From a virus (taxonomy: Duplodnaviria; Heunggongvirae; Uroviricota; Caudoviricetes): 49,224 nt of DNA. Positions 45,114 to 47,585 of this stretch are shown piece after piece. The notes beneath the pieces were generated by a model, which did no database searches, was not told the origin of the DNA, and was given only the letters and a program-made list of their open reading frames with translations. The translations under genes and the position numbers were made by a program. The stretch lies in the IMG/VR virus record IMGVR_UViG_2563366934_000004, one strand, 5' to 3'. Positions within the stretch are counted from its first letter, which is position 1. Every line of letters starts with the position of its first letter.

Positions 45114-47585
45114 ATGAGTAAAGTCTTTATTTGCGCCGCTATTCCTGACGAACTGGCAACAAGGGAAGAAGGCGCTGTGGCTGTAGCCACAGCCATTGAA
45201 GCTGGCGACGAACGCCGTGCTCGAGCAAAATTTCACTGGCAGTTCCTGGAACATTATCCGGCTGCTCAGGACTGCGCTTATAAATTTATTGTCTGCGAGG
45301 ATAAACCTGGCATACCCCGCCCTGCCCTCGATTCATGGGATGCTGAATATATGCAGGAAAACCGCTGGGATGAGGAGTCTGCTTCTTTTGTCCCGGTTGA
45401 GACTGAATCCGATCCGATGAACGTCACTTTTGACAAGCTGGCCCCTGAAGTACAGAACGCTGTCATGGTTAAGTTCGACACATGTGAAAACATCACCGTT
45501 GATATGGTTATTAGCGCACAGGAATTGTTGCAGGAAGACATGGCAACATTCGACGGACATATCGTTGAAGCGTTGATGAAAATGCCAGAAGTTAACGCCA
45601 TGTATCCGGAGCTTAAGTTGCACGCCATTGGGTGGGTTAAGCATAAATGTATTCCTGGTGCTAAATGGCCCGAAATTCAGGCAGAGATGCGCATCTGGAA
45701 AAAACGTCGCGAAGGTGAACGCAAGGAAACCGGAAAATACACGTCTGTTGTTGATCTCGCCCGCGCCAGAGCCAATCAACAGTACACTGAAAATTCAACA
45801 GGAAAAATCAGCCCGGTCATTGCTGCCATTCATCGCGAATACAAGCAGACATGGAAAACACTGGATGACGAACTGGCCTACGCTCTCTGGCCTGGTGATG
45901 TGGATGCCGGAAACATTGACGGCAGCATCCATCGCTGGGCAAAAAAAGAAGTTATCGACAACGACCGCGAAGACTGGAAGCGTATCTCGGCATCAATGCG
46001 CAAACAGCCTGATGCCCTTCGCTACGACCGCCAGACTATTTTTGGCCTTGTCCGTGAGCGTCCGATCGACATTCACAAAGATCCCATAGCACTGAACAAA
46101 TATATCTGCGAATACCTGACGACAAAGGGCGTGTTTGAGAATGAAGAAACAGACCTGGGCACTGTTGATGTTCTCCAGTCATCAGAAACACAAACTGATG
46201 CAGTGGAAACTGAGGTATCTGATATCCCAAAAAATGAAACCGCGCCGGAAGCTGAACCATCTGTAGAGCGTGAGGGGCCGTTCTATTTCCTCTTCGCAGA
46301 TAAGGACGGAGAAAAATACGGTCGCGCAAACAAACTTTCTGGTCTGGATAAGGCACTGGCTGCTGGCGCCACTGAAATCACAAAAGAAGAATATTTTGCC
46401 CGAAAAAATGGCACATACACGGGCTTACCGCAAAATGTAGATACCGCTGAAGATTCAGAACAACCAGAGCCGATAAAAGTTACCGCTGACGAAGTAAACA
46501 AAATTATGCAGGCAGCCAATATCAGCCAGCCTGACGCCGATAAGTTGCTTGCTGCATCACGTGGTGAATTTGTTGAAGGGATTAGTGACCCGAATGATCC
46601 GAAATGGGTTAAGGGGATCCAGACCCGCGATTCTGTGAACCAGAACCAGCATGAATCGGAACGGAACTACCAAAAAGCGGAACAAAACAGCACAAATGCG
46701 TTACAAAACGAGCCAGAAACGAAACAGCCTGAACCAGTGGCGCAACAGGAAGTGGAAAAAGTCTGCACCGCCTGCGGTCAGACCGGCGGCGGCAACTGCC
46801 CTGATTGTGGCGCGGTGATGGGCGACGCAACATACCAAGAAACATTCGATGAAGAGTATCAGGTTGAAGTTCAGGAAGATGATCCGGAGGAAATGGAAGG
46901 CGCTGAACATCCACACAAGGAGAACACTGGCGGCAATCAGCATCACAATAGCGATAATGAAACTGGCGAGACGGCAGATCACTCAATTAAGGTGAACGGT
47001 CATCACGAAATCACATCCACCAGCAGGACGTGTGACCATCTAATGATCGACCTTGAAACCATGGGAAAAAATCCTGATGCCCCGATCATCTCAATAGGTG
47101 CAATATTTTTCGATCCGCAAACCGGAGATATGGGACCGGAATTTAGTAAGACTATCGATCTGGAAACTGCTGGCGGAGTCATTGATCGGGACACCATTAA
47201 ATGGTGGCTTAAGCAATCACGCGAAGCGCAATCTGCCATTATGACCGATGAAATCCCGTTAGATGATGCACTGTTACAATTACGGGAATTTATCGACGAA
47301 AACTCCGGTGAATTTTTTGTTCAGGTTTGGGGAAATGGAGCCAACTTCGACAACACAATTTTGCGCCGTTCATACGAACGGCAGGGGATCCCCTGCCCGT
47401 GGCGTTACTACAACGATCGCGATGTACGCACAATCGTTGAGCTGGGGAAAGCCATAGACTTCGATGCCAGAACGGCTATTCCATTCGAAGGTGAGCGCCA
47501 TAATGCACTTGATGACGCCCGTTACCAGGCAAAATACGTTTCAGTTATCTGGCAAAAACTGATCCCGAGTCAGGCTGATTCTTAA
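45114..47585 (+). CDS. ydfE: Large multidomain protein: RecE-like N-terminal/central region + Zn-ribbon + C-terminal DEDDh 3'-5' exonuclease domain
   Basis: 823 aa, ATG 45114 with GAGG RBS; central motif [33 protein letters not shown] recalled from RecE; [16 protein letters not shown]; C-terminal MIDLETMG ... [12 protein letters not shown] ... [10 protein letters not shown] exonuclease motifs. Confidence 0.75.
   Translation: [823 protein letters not shown]

Follow-up and report, generated by a model that had tools for sequence, protein, structure and literature searches.

The IMG/VR virus record IMGVR_UViG_2563366934_000004, a 49,224-nt stretch of tailed-phage DNA that we call the window, carries near its right end a gene for an 823-amino-acid (aa) protein that is probably a stand-alone, metal-dependent 3′–5′ DNA exonuclease. 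A predicted DEDDh nuclease domain sits at the end of a RecE-type body, encoded in the dicBF/pL operon of a lambdoid prophage, and from sequence comparisons we read the protein as an enzyme in its own right, not as half of an exonuclease/annealase pair. A first-pass annotation of the DNA letters had drawn attention to the open reading frame (ORF), which is present on the plus strand with an ATG start, as a fusion of RecE-like regions to a DEDDh exonuclease. The gene and its catalytic domain lie as follows.

45114–47585, plus strand: exonuclease gene, an intact form of the K-12 pseudogene ydfE (ORF, ATG start, 823 aa)
47037–47552, plus strand: DEDDh 3′–5′ exonuclease domain, aa 642–813 (Pfam PF16473, Rv2179c-like)
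47049–47051, 47055–47057, 47349–47351, 47499–47501 and 47514–47516, plus strand: catalytic codons for D646, E648, D746, H796 and D801, respectively

A DEDDh exonuclease domain related to T4 DexA

The C-terminal domain matches PF16473 from position 2 to position 177 of the 177-position profile (226.5 bits against a gathering cutoff of 27, E = 2.3e-67), and the Pfam check that the first-pass annotation had proposed thus returned a family of DEDD fold. D646 and E648 lie in MIDLETMG (Exo I), D746 in NFDN (Exo II), and H796 and D801 in HNALDD (Exo III). When the domain is aligned with T4 DexA and with stand-alone homologues, the first four of these residues are invariant; D801 does not vary among eight aligned sequences, T4 DexA among them, and is conserved to at least 90% in an alignment of 20. 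The three motifs that had been named as signs of a DnaQ-like enzyme therefore coincide with the conserved catalytic columns.

In a profile search of solved structures, the best relative was T4 DexA (PDB 8KEL/8KEN; E = 8e-23, versus 6e-5 for DnaQ and about 1e-3 for Orn and the oligoribonucleases). Rv2179c from Mycobacterium tuberculosis, the founder of PF16473, did not turn up in the sequence searches of solved structures, although it shares the Pfam family; it is a small stand-alone bacterial exoribonuclease, whereas the window domain is the tail of a prophage protein. DexA belongs to the same DEDDh subfamily and aligns over nearly the whole domain at 27% identity, with all catalytic residues in register. 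It differs in being a 227-aa stand-alone protein with extra loops, from a virulent phage. T4 DexA is a 3′–5′ DNA exonuclease (T4 annotation; PMC12153337). Stand-alone forms of the domain, 180–190 aa long and 59–87% identical to it, also occur in E. coli and Salmonella. Because DexA is the closest solved relative and the fusion partners of the domain belong to DNA recombination, 3′ ends of DNA are the most likely substrate of this predicted metal-dependent 3′–5′ exonuclease.

Heads and tails are exchanged as cassettes

Two breaks in DNA homology fall within the gene, both located with blastn and carrying no strand.

46980: cassette-swap junction, at the first base of codon 623, after ...GETAD
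46474: upstream mosaic junction, near aa 454

The first break separates the body from the nuclease. Compared with L008, a locus that encodes a YdfE head with a RecE tail, the window is 92.9% identical over 44200–46980 and homology ends at nucleotide 46980; homology to the recE gene of K-12 (78% over 46538–46980) ends at the same nucleotide. L008 encodes P0233, an E. coli protein of 900 aa, which matches the window protein at 89% identity over aa 1–625 and then runs into the RecE PD-(D/E)XK nuclease (DUF3799), matching RecE 278–866 at 66%. At the Rac attachment site, its gene stands behind dicB–ydfD and ahead of recT–lar–xis–int. The idea of a domain-swapped nuclease, put forward in the first-pass annotation, is thereby borne out at nucleotide resolution: P0233 shares aa 1–625 but has the RecE tail and recT.

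The second break separates alternative heads. To the right of 46474 the window is 97.5% identical to a gene of phage vB_EcoS-640R1, and to the left the two are unrelated at the DNA level. The phage protein combines a RecE-type head (aa 58–615 correspond to RecE 50–591, 58.6%) with a DEDDh tail, and its gene is followed by xis–int. Pfam searches of cluster representatives likewise recovered both proteins with an Exonuc_VIII head and an Rv2179c-like tail and proteins with a YdfE head and a DUF3799 tail, so that all four combinations of head (YdfE or RecE) and tail (DEDDh or PD-(D/E)XK) exist. The nuclease tail is thus an exchangeable cassette joined at nucleotide 46980, and the heads are exchangeable too.

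The annealase gene recT goes together with the PD-(D/E)XK tail: among the RecE-tail matches listed at full coverage, each spans recT as well as recE. By contrast, all 13 of the DEDDh-tail loci inspected (the window, L001, L004, L007 and L012–L020, at the four attachment sites rspB, potC, ompW and tRNA-Ser/mtfA) have an xis-type gene and int directly downstream, without recT.

A third cassette occurs in many proteins of about 780 aa from Enterobacter, Klebsiella, Salmonella, Citrobacter and E. albertii, which consist of the YdfE body without a nuclease domain and are annotated ‘exodeoxyribonuclease VIII’. At the C terminus they have a KKSLTDAxKKALSxLGF helix, together with a weak match to Pfam Rad52_Rad22 (E = 0.004, below threshold), and in an AlphaFold2 (AF2) model of one of them, P0429, the Rad52-like part folds with moderate to good confidence (predicted local distance difference test (pLDDT) of about 58–91 by block). 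The gene order around this cassette is kilR, a weak Gam match, the gene itself, Sipho_Gp157, xis and int. As predicted from these comparisons, the same body is coupled in nature to a 5′–3′ nuclease, a 3′–5′ nuclease or a Rad52-like annealase, and this coupling to three DNA effectors would therefore place the body in DNA-end metabolism.

No annealase in the prophage

The gene lies in a leftward early operon with the order DicA-like repressor, DUF1391/ydfA, DicF, dicB, ydfD, exonuclease, xis, int, and in matching genomes the host gene rspB comes next after int. Its neighbours in the window are listed here.

44418–44469, plus strand: DicF small RNA (sRNA) (Rfam, 72.5 bits)
44644–44832, plus strand: dicB (ORF; named by the Prokaryotic Genome Annotation Pipeline (PGAP) in identical prophages)
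44829–45020, plus strand: ydfD (ORF; PGAP name in identical prophages)
47658–47909, plus strand: excisionase gene xis (ORF; PGAP)
47929–49224, plus strand: integrase gene int (ORF; PGAP)

The placement in the early-left operon, as originally suggested, agrees with the repressor, ydfA, DicF, dicB and ydfD upstream and xis and int downstream. A two-component recombinase would have an annealase gene next to the exonuclease or elsewhere in the phage; none was found in the window, and xis and int follow directly. With RecT, the RecE nuclease domain and a Rad52-like cassette as queries, tblastn against the whole window returned noise only (best E = 0.06), PGAP named no gene for RecT, Erf, Red-beta or Rad52 in a prophage of 99.8% identity, and Pfam found no annealase among the unnamed early genes of the prophage. 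The observation that no annealase lies nearby and that xis and int come next therefore stands by ORFs, PGAP, Pfam and tblastn alike, and the search for a distant annealase that the first-pass annotation had called for found none in the window.

As a separate observation, the dicF–dicB–ydfD–exonuclease block is 93% identical between prophages whose immunity regions, exonuclease heads, xis/int genes and attachment sites are otherwise different.

Anatomy of the RecE-type body

We modelled aa 1–640 with AF2 from an alignment of 69 sequences. Three domains were predicted with confidence (aa 1–204, 240–343 and 385–438), and the remainder, including the motif and the cysteine knuckle shared with RecE, has a pLDDT of about 30.

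45114–45725, plus strand: D1, aa 1–204, YdfE_N-type head, not RecE-like
45831–46142, plus strand: D2, aa 240–343, helical (pLDDT 79–91); RecE similarity from aa 262, where the BLASTP alignment starts at RecE 278
46266–46427, plus strand: D3, aa 385–438, small beta/alpha domain with GPFY...GRANK...EI (pLDDT 80–91)
46428–47033, plus strand: linker, aa 439–640, acidic and probably flexible (pLDDT about 30), of which aa 474–622 are common to RecE
46533–46631, plus strand: conserved peptide motif DADKLL...IQTRD, aa 474–506 (31 of 33 residues identical to RecE 453–485)
46764–46811, plus strand: Cys4 knuckle, C551, C554, C562 and C565 (RecE has the same CxxC-x7-CxxC)

The resemblance to RecE is confined to part of this body. 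By BLASTP against RecE of the K-12 Rac prophage, aa 262–625 align with RecE 278–591 at 39% identity (E = 9e-62), rising to about 80% by eye over aa 474–625. The NCBIfam ExoVIII model PRK09709 (NF007259) matches aa 246–625 through positions 271–602 of its 877, scoring 282.9 bits, well short of its 1269-bit cutoff. Of the RecE-like regions originally proposed, this central and linker portion holds, but aa 1–256 are not RecE-like: they equal the K-12 ydfE product and lack the Exonuc_VIII head. Pfam gave no match to that head (PF06630) in the 823-aa protein, although it is present in the DEDDh-tailed relatives P0243 and P0245. Nor was the RecE PD-(D/E)XK nuclease (RecE 564/606–866) detected, with no DUF3799 match, no BLASTP alignment past RecE 591, and only noise when RecE 591–866 was searched against the whole window with tblastn.

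The central peptide motif had been likened to that of Rac RecE, correctly, as its 31 matching residues of 33 attest; some relatives with Rad52 tails, for example P0255 and P0273, have related motifs. The Cys4 element, in turn, had been placed between the RecE-like and nuclease regions. It lies instead within the RecE-homologous block, 57 residues upstream of the swap junction, as a putative metal site. The knuckle occurs in most E. coli proteins with DEDDh or PD-(D/E)XK tails and is absent from all 121 Rad52-tailed ones (121/121).

D3 is the most conserved stretch of the body, with ten invariant columns among the 69 sequences (G388, P389, F390, Y391, G399, R404, A405, K407, E421 and I422), and we regard it as the best candidate for a partner-binding element specific to the YdfE-type body. 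K-12 RecE appears to be without D3, the RecE stretch aligned there being gapped and dissimilar.

Purifying selection and prevalence

Ratios of nonsynonymous to synonymous substitution (dN/dS) were computed pairwise between the window gene and five other prophage copies.

D1, aa 1–204: dN/dS 0.05–0.10
D2, aa 240–343: dN/dS 0.15–0.23 (0.53 in the near-identical L015 pair)
link2, aa 344–384 (46137–46265), and aa 439–473 (46428–46532): dN/dS 0.5–1.8
D3, aa 385–438: dN/dS 0.02–0.04
RecE-shared block, aa 474–622: dN/dS 0.15–0.34
DEDDh, aa 641–823: dN/dS 0.07–0.15

The folded domains evolve under purifying selection (dN/dS 0.02–0.23, excluding the L015 pair for D2), the linker at aa 439–640 has a dN/dS of 0.15–0.8, and the pattern agrees with the AF2 domain parse. 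The predicted linkers at aa 344–384 and 439–473 are near-neutral while the adjoining 54-residue D3 is almost frozen.

Prevalence was assessed in 5426 complete E. coli genomes, with the DEDDh tail alone (46981–47585) and the RecE-nuclease+recT block as queries. We found the DEDDh tail in 4055 genomes (8098 places, with as many as 7 in one genome), compared with 1728 genomes and 1841 places for the RecE-nuclease+recT block, making the DEDDh-tailed form the majority form in E. coli. Low dN/dS in the folded domains and the presence of the tail in 4055 of 5426 genomes point to a functional gene, not debris.

A common and catalogued gene

The exonuclease gene is preceded by a GAGG ribosome-binding site. 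RefSeq contains genes of 100% identical DNA sequence, with WP_001583545.1, ‘exonuclease’, as their product. PHROG 2082 is matched along the whole protein (residues 1–822 of 823), and aa 1–256 are 100% identical to the product of the K-12 ydfE pseudogene. The window protein very likely belongs to the YdfE family defined by YdfE_N (PF27430) and YdfE_C (PF27432), for which precomputed hits are recorded on P0130, P0184 and P0233, proteins 86–98% identical to it over aa 1–640. Among isolated phages, HannyBb, PhiR42_1, Tritos, mEp460 and the PPompW phages carry the gene, the copies in HannyBb, Tritos and mEp460 being 92–99.6% identical. The protein is thus already known, as a RefSeq product, a PHROG and Pfam families, and extremely common; it does not represent a novel class of gene. 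Because the gene is common and catalogued, its novelty is much lower than the first-pass annotation had made it appear. Literature searches on ydfE, Rv2179c, dicB with ydfD and exonuclease, and DEDDh with prophage found no functional study of the YdfE protein.

The K-12 counterpart, YdfE (b1577) of the cryptic prophage Qin, is identical to the window protein over aa 1–256, and the two loci share the gene order ydfA...dicF–dicB–ydfD–ydfE–(xis)–int beside rspB. In K-12, however, ydfE is cut by IS2E after codon 256 and the remainder of the gene and xis are lost, whereas the window copy is complete.

Other features of the prophage

The window starts within a host gene for a major facilitator superfamily (MFS) transporter (1–1284, minus strand), which may resemble ydfJ, and its right end coincides with the stop codon of the integrase gene. 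Large ORFs at 4–26 kb include one for a long tail-fibre-like protein and genes running on to the terminase of the matching RefSeq prophage, by whose annotation lysis, antitermination and replication genes are also present. The window is a complete lambdoid prophage, a full-length counterpart of the decayed Qin of K-12, and appears to occupy the same chromosomal locus. A Pin-type DNA invertase gene (2620–3210) stands beside the tail-fibre genes.

Between hokD/sok and the replication genes lies a low-GC island (37784–40371; 32% GC at 38–40 kb). It encodes a SMEK-domain protein (39472–40371, minus strand; PADLOC model Aga_REase-PNTD1-PNTD2, E = 1e-20), a class I S-adenosylmethionine (SAM) methyltransferase (38498–39157; weak PADLOC ‘mad2’ match) and an ORF of 235 aa without a name (37784–38491), and it may serve the prophage as defence cargo. 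Rfam matches exceeding the gathering score at 3342–3540, 27771–28187, 31285–31475, 33436–33685 and 37048–37222 comprise IS009 RNA, a cspA-type thermoregulator upstream of the prophage cold-shock gene, the STnc100 sRNA, two tRNA genes and the sok antitoxin RNA of hokD. The RusA gene (34647–35021; 124 aa; Pfam RusA, E = 2.6e-17) is intact; PGAP records an internal stop in its counterpart at L004 8658–9032, in strain 158274-3, whose prophage is 99.8% identical.

Proposed role and comparison with RecET and Red

The gene is ydfE in its intact form, carried by a complete Qin-type lambdoid prophage. It closes the repressor-controlled leftward (dicBF/pL) operon just ahead of xis–int, in the slot that recE–recT fill in Rac. 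On our reading, the exonuclease would be made upon derepression of the prophage; body and linker may bring it to a site or partner also used by full-length RecE; and it would act alone or with host functions. Its likely job would be the trimming or degradation of 3′-ended DNA during phage DNA metabolism.

RecE of Rac, which works with RecT, occupies the same position in the leftward operon before xis–int and shares the homologous region (aa 262–625 with RecE 278–591), the peptide motif and the Cys4 knuckle. Unlike RecE, the window protein lacks the DUF3799 nuclease, the Exonuc_VIII head and an accompanying recT, and its nuclease is of another superfamily with the opposite expected polarity. 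In linear–linear recombination, full-length RecE does better than its nuclease domain by itself. Lambda Exo/Red-beta and other two-component recombinases use the same genomic slot in the lambdoid early-left operon, but the window has no annealase gene there and its nuclease is not a PD-(D/E)XK 5′–3′ enzyme.

Several points weigh against this reading. DEDDh enzymes of this size mostly nibble single strands and are non-processive on duplex DNA, which makes a RecE-like resection role doubtful. The shallow alignment behind the AF2 model may partly explain the low pLDDT of the linker. Finally, PGAP often names relatives ‘3′–5′ exoribonuclease’ and PF16473 is named after the exoribonuclease Rv2179c; since the founder of the family is an exoribonuclease, RNA is a possible substrate.

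Alternative functions

The alternative that survives best, although unlikely, is a defence or superinfection-exclusion nuclease that degrades the 5-hydroxymethylcytosine (5hmC) DNA of T-even phages and so protects the lysogen. The closest solved relative is indeed from T4, the gene is carried by prophages and very frequent, single genomes having up to seven copies, and its neighbour dicB has been reported to protect against some phages. There is also a precedent in EcD (‘HREX’; HAK9828821.1), a stand-alone DexA homologue of E. coli that is reported to cut 5hmC DNA and to protect against T4 (PMC12153337). EcD is, like the window domain, a DexA-type DEDDh exonuclease of E. coli genomes; it is, however, short and stand-alone, starting MIDTET (primer-derived), whereas the window domain is the tail of an 823-aa prophage protein. 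None of 500 retrieved homologues starts as EcD does, and the 20-mer of the EcD primer found only unrelated DNA in the viral and genome collections. The residues proposed to recognize 5hmC in DexA, W152 and D169, are Tyr and Ala in the window protein, at positions that are variable in the family; we downgraded a 5hmC-specific defence nuclease on this ground. The DexA tetramer residue D90, by contrast, aligns with the Asp in LDDAL, so that the loss of D90 looked for as a mark of the HREX/EcD type was not seen, in an alignment whose 27% identity makes this weak evidence. Moreover, PADLOC has no match for the exonuclease, the gene sits in a repressed leftward operon, and its tail swaps with recombination cassettes, not with defence genes.

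Slightly less likely is an RNA exonuclease like Rv2179c, which during induction would trim the 3′ ends of RNAs, for example DicF, the transcript of the dicBF operon or RNAs of the host. The family and PGAP names given above favour it, as does an operon shared with DicF, a processed sRNA. The search scores point the other way, with the DNA enzyme DexA at 8e-23 and the oligoribonucleases near 1e-3, and body and linker are common to proteins of DNA recombination, RecE and the Rad52-like fusions.

We consider it improbable that the protein is a recombination exonuclease served by an annealase in trans (RecT, Bet or a Rad52-like protein of co-resident prophages) or by host RecA, as an opposite-polarity RecET. 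Such a system would account for the occupied recE slot and the retained RecE-like body; 5′ tails can in principle serve for single-strand annealing of two ends; and E. coli usually carries several lambdoid prophages, with recET in 1728 of the 5426 genomes. Yet no annealase is encoded in the window prophage, known exonuclease–annealase pairs are partner-specific through the nuclease domain, which is replaced in the window protein, and we know of no recombination system built on a 3′–5′ exonuclease.

A decayed RecET remnant, a defective general recombination function of the kind to which most ExoVIII-type modules of the O157 Sakai prophages were assigned, only Sp10 being taken as intact (PMC2669165), might explain the missing recT and the IS2-cut pseudogene of K-12, but it is largely refuted: the frame is intact with all catalytic residues present, every folded domain is under purifying selection (the DEDDh domain at dN/dS 0.07–0.15) and so is not decayed RecET, the same gene order recurs at four attachment sites, and the tail is more than twice as widespread by genomes as recE–recT (4055 versus 1728). 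We rejected it on dN/dS and prevalence.

Implications for lambdoid phages

We return, then, to the reading of a stand-alone DNA exonuclease on a RecE-type body. As a sequence object the 823-aa gene is ordinary. Prophages that carry a DEDDh-tailed gene without recT have been scored as recombination-defective (PMC2669165), and judged from these genomes, selection and prevalence argue for a different, working function.

More broadly, and tentatively, the non-nuclease body of YdfE and RecE could be a general delivery platform of lambdoid phages with interchangeable DNA-end effectors, in which the DEDDh form represents an annealase-independent pathway of opposite polarity. If so, the purpose of the DEDDh form might be the removal of 3′ tails to steer or block host recombination, the scavenging of host DNA or the exclusion of other phages, and would be distinct from classical RecET/Red recombination. 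The part of RecE that is homologous to aa 262–625 has been described as of unknown function (PMC11611040), and the platform, if real, would offer a first functional handle on the RecE N-terminal region. That N-terminal body is a conserved, selected module coupled to what are predicted to be three DNA effectors, and the natural swaps of heads and tails provide ready-made controls for dissecting its function.

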